Origin: a virus
Lineage: Duplodnaviria > Heunggongvirae > Uroviricota > Caudoviricetes
IMG/VR virus record: IMGVR_UViG_2588253749_000008
Direction: 5' to 3' (one strand)
DNA: 37,557 nt
Shown here one piece after another: positions 1,842-37,557 of this stretch. Each line of letters begins with the position of its first letter. Positions within the stretch are counted from its first letter, which is position 1. The position numbers were made by a program, and so were the translations under genes. The notes below the pieces were generated by a model, which searched no databases, was not told the DNA's origin, and worked only from the letters and a program-made list of their open reading frames with translations.

Positions 1842-1970
1842 TAACTCTCGTCTCATACAGGTAACACAAACGTGAAAATCCTTGTTGATGAAAAAAATGA
1901 TGATTTAATTTATTGATATAAAAGGATTTATATCAGCACGTGTCCACGTAGTGACCACATTTTCGAGTTA

Positions 1971-2012
1971 CAGATAACACAAAGCCCGTTTTCACGGGCT
2001 TTGTGTTATCTG
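1971..2012. repeat. Perfect 19-bp-stem palindrome (CAGATAACACAAAGCCCGT tttc ACGGGCTTTGTGTTATCTG)
   Basis: Exact inverted repeat read from sequence, just downstream of the 2040-2933 gene; no clear U-tract on either strand, so terminator versus protein-binding site is undecided. Confidence 0.5.
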
Positions 2013-2039
2013 GATTGTGGCTAAGCCACATGATTTATG

Positions 2040-2933
2040 CTATTTCCAGTTACAAGCAGCTTGAAGTGGTTTTAGCGCGTTTGACAGGCCGTTTAAATTG
2101 AAAGTTGCACTTACAGGGCTCTCATTATAAGGAGTTATTTTTGTATACATTTTGTTTGAGTTGGCTAGTTTTCGGATGAAATCAATGTCATTACCTTTAT
2201 AAAAAACAGCCTTTGTATCTGTAGATACTAGCCAGTTTCGCTCAACTGCTTTCTGTTTATCAAGACGATAAAGCATGCTGGTTTGTTCAAGGCCTAAATA
2301 TACATCCCAACTAAGAAATACTTCGGTTTTCTTTTCTCGGCAAGCTATAAACAGAGTGGGAGTAACCGCTTCTCCAAATGGAGTTCTGATATAATCATCA
2401 CTTTCTAACGATAAAATTACATTTTTCGAATCATCAATTGGCGATGTAGTAATGGATGTGTGCCATTTTCCTACATCTGTGGCTTTCTCTAATTTTGATT
2501 CAGCTTGAACAGCTTTATCCTGTGGGAATAGTTTATCGTAGCAGTTTAGTCTGGCTTCTTTATCATTTTCTGCTCGGCATTTAGATATCTCAGAAAGATT
2601 TGGTTGCTGAGCCTCTGTTGTTACTGGCTTTTCCGTTTTAGATTTTGAGTTTACAGATGGAGTAAATGTTGGAGAAAAAAAACGATCATAACAAGATAAA
2701 CGTCTGTCATCATCTTTCTCATCAGGGCATTGATCTCTGCTTTCGAATTTTTCAGCAACTTTCGTTCGAGTCGGTTGTATTGACTTATCGTAACAAGAAA
2801 GTCTGTCTTTATTATTTTCTATTGCTCGGCACTGGAGTACTGCATTGAAGTTATTATGTTCAGTTGCTGCGTGAACAGGCAGTACACTAATTGATATAAA
2901 TGATGCACCTATAGAAAAAATTATATTTTTCAT
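2040..2933 (-). CDS. Secreted/periplasmic protein with three Cys-x8-9-RL(S/N)CYD(K/R) repeats and a ~150-aa C-terminal domain of unknown function
   Basis: 297-aa ORF; N-terminal signal-peptide-like segment MKNIIFSIGASFISISVLPVHA; three spaced two-Cys repeats; visibly GC-poor. Confidence 0.6.
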   Translation of the reverse strand: MKNIIFSIGASFISISVLPVHAATEHNNFNAVLQCRAIENNKDRLSCYDKSIQPTRTKVAEKFESRDQCPDEKDDDRRLSCYDRFFSPTFTPSVNSKSKTEKPVTTEAQQPNLSEISKCRAENDKEARLNCYDKLFPQDKAVQAESKLEKATDVGKWHTSITTSPIDDSKNVILSLESDDYIRTPFGEAVTPTLFIACREKKTEVFLSWDVYLGLEQTSMLYRLDKQKAVERNWLVSTDTKAVFYKGNDIDFIRKLANSNKMYTKITPYNESPVSATFNLNGLSNALKPLQAACNWK

Positions 2934-2937
2934 TTTG

Positions 2938-3270
2938 TTATCCTTTTGGTTTAGTAAGAAATACTAAAATTCCGATAATGATATCGCCAATAACCCATAA
3001 ACTTCCAATGGTAATTAAACCTAAGCCTGTACCAATAACTGCACCGGCTTTTTCGGCATCGGATGTAGCATTATTTATTATTTCACTAGTGCCTCCCAGT
3101 CCAACTAAAAGCGTATAGATCATAAAAATATTAAATAATATAAATATCCACTTAATGAGCTTTCCAAAAAATGAACGCTTAAGTTTTTTTATTTGTTTAC
3201 CGCAAGCAGGGCAATACAATGCTGAATCGCTCACCTCTTTCTGGCATTCAGGACATTTGATTAATGCCAT
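2938..3270 (-). CDS. Zinc-ribbon membrane protein (N-terminal CPxC...CPxC, two predicted TM helices)
   Basis: 110-aa ORF MALIKCPECQK...CPACGKQ followed by two hydrophobic stretches; GGAGG RBS; stop lies 5 nt before the start of 2040-2933 (operon). Confidence 0.6.
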   Translation of the reverse strand: MALIKCPECQKEVSDSALYCPACGKQIKKLKRSFFGKLIKWIFILFNIFMIYTLLVGLGGTSEIINNATSDAEKAGAVIGTGLGLITIGSLWVIGDIIIGILVFLTKPKG

Positions 3271-3531
3271 GTAATCCGCCTCCTTTGGATCAATACGAGT
3301 TGATATTTGTTACAAAACATTTTGATTTTATCAGATTTTTTTTTATTGATAAGTGTCAATTGATTAGCTGGTATAGAGTGAGACATATAGAAGGGCAGAT
3401 CTGTATCAGTAGTGATGCAAAAATCCCACAGTTTCATGGAATTTTTGCATTTAGAGCCGTGAGATAGGGTGCCTTATCGACCTTACCCTGGCAACCGATT
3501 GACGGGGGATTACTCCCCCGTCGCGGTTTCC

Positions 3532-3672
3532 TTACTGCTTACACTGTAAGAACGCCGCAAACTCCGCTCCCCAGAAACTCATCCGTATTTCGCACAGCGA
3601 ACCGTGCAACATCCAGATGATGAGGATTACCGTCACGCAGAACGTGATGGCTGTAAGCGATTTTTGCGACAT
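3532..3672 (-). CDS. Hok/Gef-family type I toxin (small membrane peptide)
   Basis: 46-aa ORF not in the supplied track: MSQKSLTAITFCVTVILIIWMLHGSLCEIRMSFWGAEFAAFLQCKQ; shares the SLCEIR and E-x-AAF motifs of Hok/HokA-type toxins; stable 3' stem-loop GACGGGGGAttacTCCCCCGTC at 3501-3522. Confidence 0.65.
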   Translation of the reverse strand: MSQKSLTAITFCVTVILIIWMLHGSLCEIRMSFWGAEFAAFLQCKQ

Positions 3673-3862
3673 AGCACTTGCTCCTTTTCCGGAGAGGCGC
3701 TAACCTTTCACTTGCTTAGGGTAGACGGTTAGGGCCTCGGTTAAACAAAAGTGTTTTCCGGGGCCTTTCCACATCTGGCCTTCGGGTATTCCCTCCGACC
3801 ATCAGCCGAAAGGCACCCGCGCGTAATCTATCGCTTTTTTGTTACTCCGGCAATTCTGCTTG

Positions 3863-4123
3863 TTAATTCTGAGGTAAAGGCAAACTCATCTGATTGTTTC
3901 CCCTGTGTGAAGCTGGTAGCTCATGCCACGGGATACCTTCTGAAGAGTGAACGCCGGAGGCGTGTTTCGATGTGAATTTATGGAAAGCTTCCAGTGTTGA
4001 GAAGCATACGCCGCATTCCAGATTGTTACACTGGTAATACTTTTGCCGCACGGTGTTTGAATCATTTTCCGGACGACTTGTGCGGATACGGGCAGATGCG
4101 CCACAAAGCGGACAACGGAACAT
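3863..4123 (-). CDS. ogr: Ogr/Delta-type zinc-finger late-gene activator
   Basis: MFRCPLCGASARIRTSR...YYQCNNLECGVCF matches the Ogr CPLC...QC..C zinc finger; ORF is 86 aa versus about 72 aa for P2 Ogr. Confidence 0.8.
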   Translation of the reverse strand: MFRCPLCGASARIRTSRPENDSNTVRQKYYQCNNLECGVCFSTLEAFHKFTSKHASGVHSSEGIPWHELPASHRGNNQMSLPLPQN

Positions 4124-4314: not shown

Positions 4315-5337
4315 ATGGGAAGAGATATAACGCTGTACCCTAAAAAAGCAACTAGAAACGAACTTAAAAATTACCTTGAAAATTTAGGTTTTAAAAGGTG
4401 TAAACATTTGTGGGAATGGCCCCAAGGAACGTTGAATTACTCTTGGTTTGATGATACGGACTTCAAATCTACAGATGGAGTTTCGGCTGATATATATCCT
4501 GTTTCAAATGACGAATTACACATATCTGGTAATAAATGGGCATTGCATGTGCGTAATTTATATAGCGCTAGTTGGCATGATGTAAAAATGCTTAATGATG
4601 TTCTAAAAGGCGCAAGGAGTCTTTTTGGTGGAACACTTATAGGTGATTATGGGAAAAATAGGTACGCTCCTCTATGGAAGGATTCTAGTAGTCCGATCAG
4701 TCGTGGCATTTCTTCAATATTTAATCATGTCCATCATGAGATTTCCGCTGTTAAACATGCCTTACCTGAACCTTCTATTAAATTAAACCTACCGGAAGAT
4801 GGCGGCTTATCCGAATACTTTGATTACATGCAATGTATGGATCCCAGTAGAGTTATATATAATGGATTAGTACCTTTTGCGGTTGCTATGTTTGAATACT
4901 TTTTCTCTAGAGCTTTTCAAATACTTATAAAGTACGATCCTTTCGCAATAGCAAAAAGAACATCGTATAAGCAAAAAGTTGATTTTGATATTCTGCTTGA
5001 GATAGAGAAAGGAAATATTTCAATAGAAAGTGTTATTGCAAGAAATTACACTTTTCAAAACTTAACCCACCTAAACAAAGCATATAAAGAGTGGCTGGAT
5101 ATAGATGTGAGAGCGATTCTTTATAAGAAAAAAAGAATTGGAAAATCAGTTGATTTTCTTGAGAATCGAATTTCTGAAATCATACAATATAGACATGGGA
5201 TAGTTCATCACTTTGAGTTGGATAGGACCTTAAATCGGGATGGATATATTCATATATTAGATGCGATAGAAAAAAGCATAATTGAATTTATCCATTACAT
5301 AGAAGGCAAATACAAATTTAAATTAAATGCGTATTAA
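4315..5337 (+). CDS. Orphan GC-poor cargo gene, 340 aa; C-terminal alpha-helical region with an R-x4-H (YRHGIVHH) HEPN-like motif; candidate defence/abortive-infection protein
   Basis: Intact ORF opposite in orientation to flanking ogr and D; AGGTGA RBS; visibly AT-rich against the prophage backbone; followed by a hairpin at 5366-5389. HEPN assignment is motif-level inference only. Confidence 0.55.
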   Translation: MGRDITLYPKKATRNELKNYLENLGFKRCKHLWEWPQGTLNYSWFDDTDFKSTDGVSADIYPVSNDELHISGNKWALHVRNLYSASWHDVKMLNDVLKGARSLFGGTLIGDYGKNRYAPLWKDSSSPISRGISSIFNHVHHEISAVKHALPEPSIKLNLPEDGGLSEYFDYMQCMDPSRVIYNGLVPFAVAMFEYFFSRAFQILIKYDPFAIAKRTSYKQKVDFDILLEIEKGNISIESVIARNYTFQNLTHLNKAYKEWLDIDVRAILYKKKRIGKSVDFLENRISEIIQYRHGIVHHFELDRTLNRDGYIHILDAIEKSIIEFIHYIEGKYKFKLNAY

Positions 5338-33115: not shown

Positions 33116-33294
33116 GGTGTGGCCCCTTGTGTAGTAAGTTGTGAAAACTCACCATCCAGAGCTGCGAAACTGTGGGTGGCGAGACGTACGAGGTTCGCAG
33201 TACCGGCTACACAAGAACCCGGCCCGACCGAAGTCGGCCCCGTACGCCCCGCCATAATTCTGACGCGAAAAAAACGTGGCAATACAGTACGCAC

Positions 33295-33320
33295 AAAAAA
33301 ACCGCTGGCGCGGTTGTGCG
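33295..33320 (-). terminator. Putative minus-strand terminator (AACCGCGCCAGCGGTT + TTTTTTTG)
   Basis: Hairpin plus T-run within the structured intergenic region. Confidence 0.4.
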
Positions 33321-33437
33321 CTTGTGTAGTCAGCAGGCTGCGAAACCCGGCACCCGTTTTGTGAGGTGCAGCGGAAATGTAACCTGACTGATTGCGGCAT
33401 GGCAAGCGGTTTTTTTGTGTGTGCATGTTCTGGTTTC

Positions 33438-34927: not shown

Positions 34928-35269
34928 TTATAAATCAGCCTGTTTAATAAAACTCTGTCCACGCAGCAGACGATCAACCGTGCGAAGCGCTTCGTATAAT
35001 GTGAAATCCTGCCCGAACTGATTGTCGCCGCTGCTCAGAGCAAAAATGCGGTTTCCGGTAAACGGATTGCGCGGGCATTTGTGGACCACGATTCCAGCTT
35101 TCTCAATCAGCCAGGCATGCTCGCCGATTTGTTTTACTGGGTAGCCATCCGGCGTTGCGTGTGTATCACTCAGGCTGTAGCGGATGTTGCTGCGTGATGC
35201 ACTGGTAGCAAAACGGTTAGCGTGGCGTTCTGCACCATTGCGAAAGCGTGAATTACGTTGCTGTTTCAT
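34928..35269 (-). CDS. Early-region hypothetical protein
   Basis: 113-aa ORF. Confidence 0.45.
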   Translation of the reverse strand: MKQQRNSRFRNGAERHANRFATSASRSNIRYSLSDTHATPDGYPVKQIGEHAWLIEKAGIVVHKCPRNPFTGNRIFALSSGDNQFGQDFTLYEALRTVDRLLRGQSFIKQADL

Positions 35270-35521
35270 GTTAAAGACTCTGTACAGATTTAATTATTCC
35301 GGCATAGAGGCCGAACTCAAAATATTTGCGATTAAATCGCATCGCATTGTTTTCACGTTTTGCGGACTGCTGGTTCATTTTCGTTTGCCTCCGCACATGA
35401 GAATTGCGCCGCTTAAGAGGTAACCGAAGTTAATTGATAGTATTACAATTAACATAAGGTCCAATTTGTCCATGCCACACATAATTACCCTCATTGCAGT
35501 AGTTGTGGGTTGTCAGGTTTC

Positions 35522-35728
35522 TCACCCGATAAACCAGATAACAAACGCTATCAACATCGCCCCAATAGCTGCCGGGAAAAGTCCTTTGGTATAAGCGGCG
35601 ATATATTCAATGCTGAGTTCAATAAAGCGTTCTTTATGTCCCGTTAACTTGCGAAACAAATAGATCTCTATTACGCCTATCTCAATAAAAACAAGGGTCA
35701 GAATGGCGCTGATGATATGGCTGGTCAT
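35522..35728 (-). CDS. Small two-TM membrane protein next to cox
   Basis: 68-aa hydrophobic ORF. Confidence 0.45.
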   Translation of the reverse strand: MTSHIISAILTLVFIEIGVIEIYLFRKLTGHKERFIELSIEYIAAYTKGLFPAAIGAMLIAFVIWFIG

Positions 35729-35734
35729 TTATGA

Positions 35735-36022
35735 CTAAAGTCCTAGCCACAACAACCATGCGTCGCGGCGTTCTTTCGGTTGCTCAAAAAACGCTTTGCG
35801 CATGCCTTCGTTAAATGCTGGCAGATATACCCAGTTTTCTGATGCACGCGTCTTTACTGAACCTGGTTTCACAAAGTCAATTGTTGGTAGCTTTGCTGCG
35901 TCAATCATGGTTCTGACTGTGGATTCCTTGCGGCCGATCATCTTGGCGAATAGTTGATATGGCACCGCTTCAAGTGGATATGGTGCTACCTGAATGAACC
36001 CCCCAAGCTCTGATTCGCTCAT
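35735..36022 (-). CDS. cox: Cox-like excisionase / transcriptional switch protein
   Basis: Blocks match P2 Cox as recalled (PYQ.FAK.IG, WVYLPA.N, RD.WL.WLGL). Confidence 0.8.
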   Translation of the reverse strand: MSESELGGFIQVAPYPLEAVPYQLFAKMIGRKESTVRTMIDAAKLPTIDFVKPGSVKTRASENWVYLPAFNEGMRKAFFEQPKERRDAWLLWLGL

Positions 36023-36096
36023 TGTGGTAATCTCCCTAATTCGTTCGAATGGCTCAAAATGGCTTATATCGGCTTATTTGAGTGTTTTTATGTTTG

Positions 36097-36142
36097 TGCC
36101 CGATGTGGCATGTTGTGATGGGGGATATGCCCGATATGGCAT
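36097..36142. promoter_or_regulatory. Operator-like direct repeats in the cox/C switch region (TGCCCGATRTGGCAT x2)
   Basis: Two 15-bp copies spaced 31 bp apart; second copy overlaps the C start codon. Confidence 0.4.
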
Positions 36143-36456
36143 CTTTGTCAAGCATGGGTGAAAAATTTCGCCTGATTCGTGAAGCAGAAGGTATGACCCG
36201 CCAGGAGTTTGCGGATTGTGTTGGGCTGCCTTATGGGACGGTAACTAACTATGAGGTGAGGGGGAAGCAAGTAACAGAGGGTGCCTTACTTAAGGTTACG
36301 AAACACCCTAAATTTAAGAAGTATGCTTATTGGTTATCAACAGATGAAACGATGCCGGAGGTCGGGCAAATTTCTCCGGCTCTCTCTCTTGATGGTTCCT
36401 GCAATTCGGAGGGAGATCGCGTTTCAACCGAAACAATCCAAAAATTATCCCGCTGA
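36136..36456 (+). CDS. C: Immunity repressor C (HTH)
   Basis: Similarity to P2 C as recalled (EK..L.R...R..AD..G.PYGT...YE, QI.PAL); start reassigned to MASLSS. Confidence 0.8.
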   Translation: MASLSSMGEKFRLIREAEGMTRQEFADCVGLPYGTVTNYEVRGKQVTEGALLKVTKHPKFKKYAYWLSTDETMPEVGQISPALSLDGSCNSEGDRVSTETIQKLSR

Positions 36457-36552
36457 GGCCAGAAAACTGGTTAGACCTGCTTTTTGTCTGGTCTGATTAT
36501 TGCTGGAAAGAGGCTGGAGAAATTGTAGAGCGGTTCATTGGAGGGCTTCGTA

Positions 36553-37557
36553 ATGTCGATTAAGAAGCTCGAAGATGGTCGTTATTTGCTGGACATCAGG
36601 CCGAACGGACGCAAGGGAAAGCGCGTGCGTAAGGTATTTGACAAAAAATCGGTAGCGGTGGCCACTGAACGCTACATCATGGCGAACGCTGAAAAGCGGG
36701 AATATATACAGGGCTACCGTGATCGTCGAACGCTAAATGATTTGCTTGAGTTGTGGTGGATGTATCACGGCCAGCACAGGCGTAAGGCGGAAGAAGACCG
36801 AAAACAACTGCGCAACATAATCAATGAGCTTGGCGCTGATATGCAGGCTGTGGATCTTGATAAGCTGAAAATTATCGCGTGGCGTTCTCAAAAGATAGCT
36901 GATGGATTGAAACCGTCATCTGCTAACAGGTACATGAATCGGTTATCCGGAATGTTTACCGTGCTGAAAAAAATAGGTCTTTGGGATGCAGAACATCCAG
37001 TAAGGGGAATTTCTATTCTTTATGTATCTCCACGAGAAATGGCGTTCCTGTCACAGAAGGAAGTGGCGCTATTGCTCGATACACTGGAGGGCGACTACTG
37101 GCGTGTTGCGCTTTTGTGTTTAAGCACAGGGGCGCGCTGGAGTGAAGCTTGTAAGCTTCGTGGTGAACAGATAGTTCATAACCGTGTAACGTTTCTTGAA
37201 ACCAAAAATGGCCGGAAGAGAACAGTGCCAATTTCGCAGGCAGTTTGTGAGGCGATCAAAACCAGAGAAACAGGCGGCTTGTTTGAGGTGAAGTACCGGG
37301 AATTCTGCCTGGCGCTGAAAAGAGTTAAGCCCGATTTACCAAAAGGCCAGGCTGCACATGTGCTGCGGCATACGTTCGCCAGCCATTTTGTGATGAACGG
37401 AGGAAACATTATTGCGCTTCAGAAGATTCTTGGTCACGCAACCATTCAGCAAACAATGGCATATGCGCATTTTGCACCGGATTACCTGCAGGATGCGGTG
37501 GCCCTTAATCCGCTGAAAGGTGGCGTAAGTGTCCACGCAGTGTCCACGGGGGATTAA
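36553..37557 (+). CDS. int: P2-type tyrosine integrase
   Basis: Strong similarity to P2 Int as recalled (IKKL.DGRY..DIRP.GR.GKR.R, LCLSTGARW.EA, HNRVTF, VPIS.AV, G.IIALQ.ILGH, QTM.YAHFAP.YLQDA); start reassigned to MSIKK. Confidence 0.9.
   Translation: MSIKKLEDGRYLLDIRPNGRKGKRVRKVFDKKSVAVATERYIMANAEKREYIQGYRDRRTLNDLLELWWMYHGQHRRKAEEDRKQLRNIINELGADMQAVDLDKLKIIAWRSQKIADGLKPSSANRYMNRLSGMFTVLKKIGLWDAEHPVRGISILYVSPREMAFLSQKEVALLLDTLEGDYWRVALLCLSTGARWSEACKLRGEQIVHNRVTFLETKNGRKRTVPISQAVCEAIKTRETGGLFEVKYREFCLALKRVKPDLPKGQAAHVLRHTFASHFVMNGGNIIALQKILGHATIQQTMAYAHFAPDYLQDAVALNPLKGGVSVHAVSTGD

Follow-up and report, generated by a model that had tools for sequence, protein, structure and literature searches.

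Plasmid R1's hok/sok locus (parB) is the paradigm of type I toxin–antitoxin (TA) systems, and there translating the mok frame up to the Shine–Dalgarno (SD) sequence of hok is mandatory (PMC9841398). A phage-borne type I TA system, hokW–sokW of the Shiga toxin 2 (Stx2) prophage Sp5, has been experimentally proven to consist of a toxin and an RNA antitoxin (Takada et al. 2021, PMC8621323), and hok is enriched in prophages according to a recent survey by Escalera-Maurer et al. (bioRxiv 10.1101/2025.08.07.668861), which analysed the Hok coding sequence only and deliberately set aside Mok, Sok and the mRNA structure. Here, we analyse a hok-like locus in IMG/VR virus record IMGVR_UViG_2588253749_000008 (Caudoviricetes), whose whole stretch of 37,557 nucleotides (nt) we call the window. 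We conclude that positions 3467–3853 very probably contain a complete hok/sok-type type I TA module, which a P2-like prophage integrated at pdxB carries as cargo between its late-gene activator gene ogr and its attachment site (att), and that the module is mildly novel in one respect only, namely that mok is lacking from a subfamily which is widespread and apparently under selection.

The toxin gene is a 46-codon open reading frame (ORF) on the minus strand (3532–3672), encoding a peptide of 46 amino acids (aa), MSQKSLTAITFCVTVILIIWMLHGSLCEIRMSFWGAEFAAFLQCKQ, which RefSeq annotates through its Prokaryotic Genome Annotation Pipeline (PGAP) as WP_000078920.1; an ORF lister run at its default minimum of 60 aa would leave it out. 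An original prediction, made from the letters of the window, had called this ORF Hok-like, and profile searches bear this out, with a match of 30.1 bits to Pfam PF01848 (HOK_GEF; gathering score 22, E value 3.7e-7, profile positions 5–42 of 42) and one to PHROG 251 ('MokW-like host killing') at an E value of 2.5e-23. The features named at the time can be read directly: SLCEIR occupies residues 25–30, E-F-A-A-F (the E-x-AAF motif) residues 37–41, and a single N-terminal hydrophobic stretch, L6–L22 (LTAITFCVTVILIIWML), is by eye a putative transmembrane segment.

The closest named Hok is HokA of Escherichia coli K-12 (43% identity), which shares the M-x-QK start, W-M, SLCE and E-x-AAFL-x-CK; its genomic site differs, and K-12 hokA is disrupted by IS150 and accompanied by an annotated mokA pseudogene. 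R1 Hok, at 52 aa, is 39% identical over 31 aa. HokA is also the best NCBIfam model (NF007290), at 35.8 bits below its equivalog cut-off of 89, and the Hok subfamily model NF007279 gives 23.6 bits, not reaching its cut-off of 73. The peptide contains all seven residues that are more than 80% conserved in a logo of 1,264 Hok peptides (M1, C16, T18, L30, C31, E32 and E41; bioRxiv 10.1101/2025.08.07.668861), here M1, C12, T14, L26, C27, E28 and E37, a correspondence that we made manually, guided by the HokA and R1 Hok alignments.

Related loci were found through exact DNA words from the conserved coding stretch. Across 71 distinct relatives, codon differences in the hok frame are 324 synonymous to 255 non-synonymous (56% synonymous), compared with 100 to 469 (18% synonymous) in the overlapping −1 frame; coding constraint sits on the hok frame and the −1 frame shows none. 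The 46-aa product is intact in 68 of 74 distinct sequences, one copy being frameshifted, and a conserved SD sequence, AAGGAG (3681–3686, minus), can be read 8 nt 5′ of the AUG. The ORF is more than a chance ORF and, by homology, would encode a toxic membrane peptide of the Hok/Gef family.

Upstream of this ORF, the elements of a hok promoter can be placed by analogy with R1. The predicted −35 hexamer, TTGCCG (3848–3853, minus), is conserved in 74 relatives and forms the 5′ boundary of the mobile module, 10 nt past the ogr stop codon; it is retained as TTGCCC in copies on Shiga toxin (Stx) phages and as TTGAAA in IncI1-plasmid copies, despite unrelated upstream flanks. After a 17-nt spacer follows the predicted −10 hexamer, TAGATT (3825–3830, minus), which aligns with TATGAT of R1, and the conserved 5′ end GGGTGCC starts 6 nt past it, giving a predicted transcription start at 3818. 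The predicted full-length hok mRNA (3460–3818, minus) has an undefined 3′ end, lying at least as far as the fbi box at 3467.

Folding of a 364-nt RNA from 3818 to 3455 yields a minimum free energy (MFE) of −160.1 kcal/mol (z = −6.77 relative to shuffles); in both the MFE and the centroid folds, the 5′ end is paired to the 3′ end. Helix 1 (94.6% paired) joins a tac-like 5′ element, GGGUGCCUUUCGGCU (3804–3818, minus), to an fbi-like 3′ element, ...AAGGCACCC (3467–3482, minus), whose GGCACCC is invariant and marks the 3′ boundary of the module. Rfam model RF01794 (sok) matches 3659–3818 on the hok strand over its full length (1–157; 51.9 bits, E value 2.4e-10); the model covers the hok leader in sense orientation, as it starts with GGGUGCUUGAG... 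and ends with ...AUG, and the match points to a homologous but divergent leader. The hok/sok-type assignment of the original prediction thus gains the Rfam match, the tac/fbi fold-back, the z-score and an element order collinear with R1.

To what extent this structure is shared was counted on 71 relatives drawn from phage records, plasmids, other species and IMG/VR. Overall, 93.9% of cells pair, compared with 37–45% when the partners are slid, and changes on both sides of a pair occur at 24 pairs and in 144 cells, compared with 15.7 and 49 in shuffles, where 0 of 500 reach the observed values. Most of helix 1 itself is invariant; a single change affects both sides, and seven pairs have changed on one side. 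Covariation is strongest in the 3′ hairpin and in the helix that joins the leader around 3706–3724 to the 3′ untranslated region (UTR) at 3484–3499. The former, a G+C-rich hairpin (3500–3523, minus), comprises 10 pairs by scan, but 9 when folded and counted. Pairing is kept in 99.8% of its cells, and 4 of the 9 pairs have changed on both sides, so that the stable 3′ stem-loop seen earlier is supported by covariation as well. This hairpin likely protects the processed mRNA at its 3′ end; the truncated mRNA of R1 depends on the corresponding last stem-loop for its stability (PMC9841398).

Removing 3455–3496 from the RNA changes the predicted fold. The tac 5′ end then refolds locally onto AAAGGCCCC (3760–3768), and a Sok-target hairpin (3694–3738, minus) with a GAGGC...GCCUC closing stem, whose loop is the variable recognition region 3715–3727, appears in this truncated fold only. 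In the full-length form, the target region is paired with the 3′ UTR at 3484–3499 (helix 5, 6 covarying pairs). Trimming opens the target: its probability of being unpaired goes from 0.16 to 0.69 in the window and from a mean of 0.21 to one of 0.49 over 70 relatives. As modelled, this behaviour would follow the logic of R1, in which the full-length mRNA is inert and the trimmed form is open to Sok.

The antisense RNA, ends included, can likewise be predicted by correspondence with R1. The original prediction had sought its promoter on the plus strand around 3780–3850; R1 correspondence moves the candidate to 3678–3706 (plus), the stretch first proposed being taken up, on the minus strand, by the predicted 5′ end of the hok mRNA and its promoter (3825–3853). 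The predicted Sok promoter, with −35 TTGCTC (3678–3683), a 17-nt spacer and −10 TAACCT (3701–3706), aligns position for position with TTGCGC/TATCCT of R1, its −35 overlapping the hok SD as it does there, and AGGTTA, which is complementary to the −10, shows little or no variation in the 71 relatives. From it, a Sok RNA of about 58 nt (3713–3770, plus) is predicted, with a single-stranded 5′ tail (3713–3730, about 17 nt), a hairpin (3731–3767) and a short U-rich end, UCC; it folds at −24.2 kcal/mol (z = −2.8), and its hairpin has both-sides changes at 2–3 pairs (helix 4).

The tail and its target (3715–3727) are the least conserved part of a module that is otherwise more than 90% conserved, and changes there are matched by compensatory changes in the masking 3′ UTR stretch, 3484–3499 (helix 5). 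The module occurs in up to 7 places per genome among complete E. coli genomes. These patterns suggest that Sok specificity is diversifying among co-resident prophage copies while masking is kept.

Set against R1, the element order is the same from the hok promoter through tac, a ucb-like box, the Sok hairpin region and the target hairpin, and on through the predicted Sok promoter, with its −35 over the hok SD, the hok ORF, the G+C-rich 3′ hairpin and the fbi box; by folding, both loci also share the 5′–3′ fold-back and a refolding once the 3′ end is trimmed. The differences are a leader about 27 nt shorter (hok AUG at +147 compared with +174), a shorter peptide, no terminator hairpin after fbi within the conserved module, a phage rather than a plasmid as carrier, and the lack of mok.

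By homology with R1 and from the folds, we read the module as follows. A weak, constitutive-type promoter would yield an mRNA of about 350 nt from near 3818, inert at full length with its 5′ tac paired to the 3′ fbi and its antisense target paired to the 3′ UTR. Slow 3′ trimming to the hairpin at 3500–3523 would let the 5′ end refold on AAAGGCCCC and expose the target hairpin at 3694–3738, with which the short, unstable Sok (about 3713–3770, plus) would pair, leading to RNase III cleavage and no Hok. Should Sok no longer be transcribed, because the prophage DNA is lost or because an infecting or induced phage shuts off host transcription, the pool of stable mRNA would be trimmed, Hok would be made from it and the inner membrane would be depolarized. 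As there is no mok leader, initiation at the strong hok SD (AAGGAG, at 8 nt) would have to be controlled directly by RNA structure or cleavage.

The benefit to the phage would most likely be addiction or stabilization of the lysogen and/or the exclusion of other phages, and a helper role in lysis after induction, as for hokW–sokW of Sp5, is possible by analogy. That host lysis and phage release are instead the main role, and not addiction or defence, we consider unlikely, although it is the most probable of the alternatives. In Sp5, sokW RNA vanishes after mitomycin C, HokW is made in a RecA-dependent manner and deletion halves phage release (PMC8621323). In the window, hok follows ogr on the same strand after 10 nt, with no intervening terminator, so that read-through during lytic growth could raise hok mRNA. 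However, P2-like phages have their own holin/endolysin cassette. Moreover, although both toxins fall in PHROG 251, HokW is a different Hok, of another subfamily and from a lambdoid phage (51 aa compared with 46, starting MKQQKAM by published primer YO-357), so that the carry-over to a P2-type module is by analogy; the Stx-phage copy of the window module, about 82% identical, is a gene separate from HokW.

Returning to the reading as a complete hok/sok-type module, several observations speak against it. A consensus promoter scan flagged neither the hok nor the Sok promoter, and the two match the sigma-70 consensus poorly (6/12 for Sok and 7/12 for hok), so that homology and conservation are the sole basis of both calls. 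The Rfam match falls short of its gathering score (59), and many helices are uninformative because much of the mRNA is nearly invariant. Neither scan nor alignment found a canonical terminator after the fbi box inside the conserved module. We infer the existence and ends of Sok, the 3′ end of the mRNA and the processing step alike.

To these must be added the state of mok. An ORF that starts with ATG, GTG or TTG and reaches the hok SD is absent from the window and from 37 of 74 distinct relatives, even though the same script detects such an ORF in an R1-type locus. In the remaining relatives, leader ORFs differ in start (+17, +45, +102 and others) and in frame. The mok overlap that the original prediction had proposed to check for is not there: the window has no mok frame with a start codon, the −1 frame being open from 3715 to 3539 without ATG, GTG or TTG before 3595. 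Where R1 has the mok AUG (positions 116–118), the window reads AAC, in a register that we set by hand against the R1 sequence as the MAFFT alignment misaligns that stretch. We conclude that this is a subfamily without Mok, to which the R1 coupling mechanism cannot apply as such.

Two candidates for a substitute were considered and rejected. A 24-codon leader ORF in the hok frame (ATG at 3774 to TAG at 3700) reads ATG TAG in the IncI1-plasmid copy, is shifted in frame by indels, has a stop that varies from +71 to +284 among relatives, and has its AUG buried in the tac stem of the trimmed fold. A tiny GUG-AAA-GGU-UAG ORF (3711–3700) has GUA in the Stx and IncI1 variants. As a control mechanism independent of mok, we also evaluated an SD/anti-SD switch, with GCCUCUCC engaging the hok SD and GAGGC in turn; 70 relatives were each folded in three states by partition function. 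The SD is unpaired with a probability of 0.31 in the full-length, 0.33 in the trimmed and 0.31 in the Sok-masked state, a marginal difference that adds to the points against; the direction of the switch is consistent in 84–86% of sequences, with a negligible effect on SD accessibility.

The lack of mok raises the alternative that the module is a translationally silent relic, in which mok was lost and hok is never translated, hitch-hiking beside ogr. The absent or inconsistent leader ORFs, the obligatory mok translation up to the hok SD in R1 (PMC9841398) and the enclosure of the hok AUG in a conserved long-range helix (helix 7) in both the full-length and the trimmed folds would all agree with it. 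A relic, however, would not keep an ORF intact in nearly all distinct sequences with substitutions skewed to synonymous in the hok frame only, nor promoters, SD, fold-back and target hairpin all conserved, with recognition-region changes compensated in the 3′ UTR, nor would it have reached three kinds of mobile element as a precisely bounded unit. We therefore hold this reading to be improbable, and more so than a main role in lysis.

The placement of the module within the prophage follows from the prophage ends. The host of integration is E. coli, the prophage is P2-like (Peduoviridae) and the site is the 5′ end of pdxB. The att core, AAAATCCTTGTTGATGAAAA (1875–1894, plus), comprises codons 2–8 of pdxB and marks the prophage end on the ogr side. 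At the empty site of strain CI5, flk is directly followed by pdxB, without hok; this sequence matches the window up to 1894 and resumes just past int in strain 503025, the same 20 bp being repeated at both junctions (503025 is identical to the window at both compared segments, 3440–3870 and 35000–37557). No second copy of the core was found in the window, even with three mismatches allowed, and hence there is no internal att between the GC-poor genes and hok.

Phage records agree. That of the Citrobacter rodentium phage Shae_phiSM (Peduoviridae, Xuanwuvirus; circular) begins inside the att core, after which come the same GC-poor pair, a hok module (94.7% identical, without annotation) and ogr; it ends with cox, C and int. 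In phage P88, whose record leaves the ogr ORF without annotation, hok adjoins the region of the tail gene gpD, and the GC-poor genes are missing. The RefSeq complete phage genome 'Escherichia phage 500465-2' (NC_049343.1), although 100% identical, was rejected as evidence for phage ends; it is uninformative on them because this prophage prediction includes mnmC, fabB, yfcJ and flk. From the att repeats, the empty site and the phage records, hok is phage cargo between ogr and att.

Of the two locations left open by the original prediction, the terminal prophage moron therefore stands (att repeats, phiSM, P88) and the chromosomal one falls, and its description as lying at the prophage–chromosome junction needs correcting, as 1.57 kb separate the locus from the att core and the prophage takes in the GC-poor genes too. 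That a resident chromosomal hok sat at attB with the prophage integrated beside it, as the several hok loci on E. coli chromosomes and the position near a prophage end beside GC-poor DNA might suggest, is already refuted by the 20-bp repeat that brackets the GC-poor genes, hok and the whole prophage with no third core copy, by the hok-free flk–pdxB site of CI5 and by phage records with the module beside ogr.

The neighbours of the module complete the picture of this phage end. Directly upstream on the same strand is the ogr/Delta-like late-gene activator (3863–4123, minus; Pfam Ogr_Delta, 52.4 bits). Of 127 related loci whose upstream sequence is long enough, 93 have an ogr homologue in this position, 83 of them at equal spacing. 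Between att and hok lies GC-poor cargo (1895–3459, minus; GC 0.35–0.37), part of the prophage and outside the hok module, which encodes a 297-aa protein with a VasI/TagO-like domain (2040–2933) and a 110-aa zinc-ribbon membrane protein (2938–3270), both on the minus strand. The C-terminal half of the former matches TIGR03360 (type VI secretion system-associated VasI/TagO) with 75.9 bits, below the cut-off of 124, and the protein falls in PHROG 1848; the latter falls in PHROG 6586, and its C-terminal half is hydrophobic by eye. This pair is present in 6 of 40 related loci with at least 2 kb downstream. PADLOC returned no match for Hok or the neighbouring cargo genes, and a weak CsrC match (E value 0.27, 13 bits) is attributable to chance.

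As the att core is made of codons 2–8 of pdxB, integration removes the native pdxB start and promoter (window 1868–1894). At the int-side phage end, beyond the right end of the window, AAGGAG and an in-frame TTG stand just upstream of the repeated core and would, judging by the sequence, restore a translatable pdxB; PGAP annotates a shorter pdxB in the lysogen (1113 compared with 1137 nt). Just outside the prophage end, in the flk–pdxB spacer, is an IS1 (1065–1831) with a target duplication of about 9–10 bp: the empty-site sequence matches 1–1064 and resumes at 1832 with a 10-nt overlap. Only one complete genome (EC476) shares this arrangement at 80% or more of the query.

Two further observations concern the prophage elsewhere. 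A 340-aa ORF (4315–5337, plus) lies between ogr and gpD, is GC-poor (33–40%) and is present in 2 of 131 related loci; with a weak match to the Pfam HEPN family RiboL-PSP (22.5 bits, below 28.4) and no PADLOC or PHROG match, it is possibly a rare defence-type insertion in the P2 late region. In the early region (33172–33369, minus), a C4 antisense RNA (RF01695, 83.2 bits, 33172–33259) and isrK (RF01394, 64.1 bits, 33295–33369) are adjacent, both above gathering.

The extent of the hok/sok-type module is defined by its copies in foreign contexts, where similarity runs from the hok −35 hexamer to just past GGCACCC; this puts the mobile unit at about 3467–3853, some 390 bp. Such copies are about 80–83% identical in Stx and lambdoid phages, where the Stx-phage copy at about 82% is a 46-aa gene, and 86% identical on an IncI1 plasmid of E. 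marmotae. The 431-bp stretch 3440–3870 is 100% identical in many complete E. coli genomes, and some version of the module is found in 1,585 of 5,426 of them. An exact 22-mer of the E. coli/Salmonella hok is also present in contigs assigned to Xanthomonas pisi (857 bp), a Planococcaceae metagenome-assembled genome (4.2 kb, partly N-masked) and Vagococcus sp. (226 kb), most likely through contamination or mis-binned enterobacterial DNA.

Public annotation and a Hok catalogue already include the module, which is in that sense ordinary rather than new, so that the label 'unannotated' once given to it does not hold. RefSeq names the window ORF 'Hok/Gef family protein' (WP_000078920.1, IHE3034), beside an 'ogr/Delta-like zinc finger family protein', and the '60% identity cluster 72' of Escalera-Maurer et al. 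contains two tested peptides that bear on it. In their tested set, 72_1621 equals the window peptide except for V15A and 72_1589 is the Stx-phage variant; 42 of 45 tested Hok homologues were toxic, and none of the three named non-toxic ones is from cluster 72 (bioRxiv 10.1101/2025.08.07.668861). The cluster is labelled HAC in the preprint table, which we read as the abundant-cluster class from which the tested homologues were picked. The main text of the preprint makes no mention of the P2 ogr–att position.

What the analysis adds is threefold. The prophage boundary is fixed: att lies among the opening codons of pdxB, and both hok and the GC-poor genes belong to the phage cargo. RNA elements left out by annotation pipelines receive explicit coordinates. 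Third, the mok-coupling step of the paradigm is inapplicable to a widespread subfamily, which poses a concrete, inexpensive question for specialists in type I toxin–antitoxin systems. We tentatively propose, at close to but somewhat below an even chance of being right, that cluster 72, an abundant phage-borne subfamily, is a functional, Mok-free form of hok/sok, in which translation would start directly at the strong SD of hok itself, Sok would silence it purely via RNA refolding or RNase III cleavage, and the Sok tail and its 3′-UTR mask would co-evolve towards non-cross-reacting specificities among co-resident prophages.

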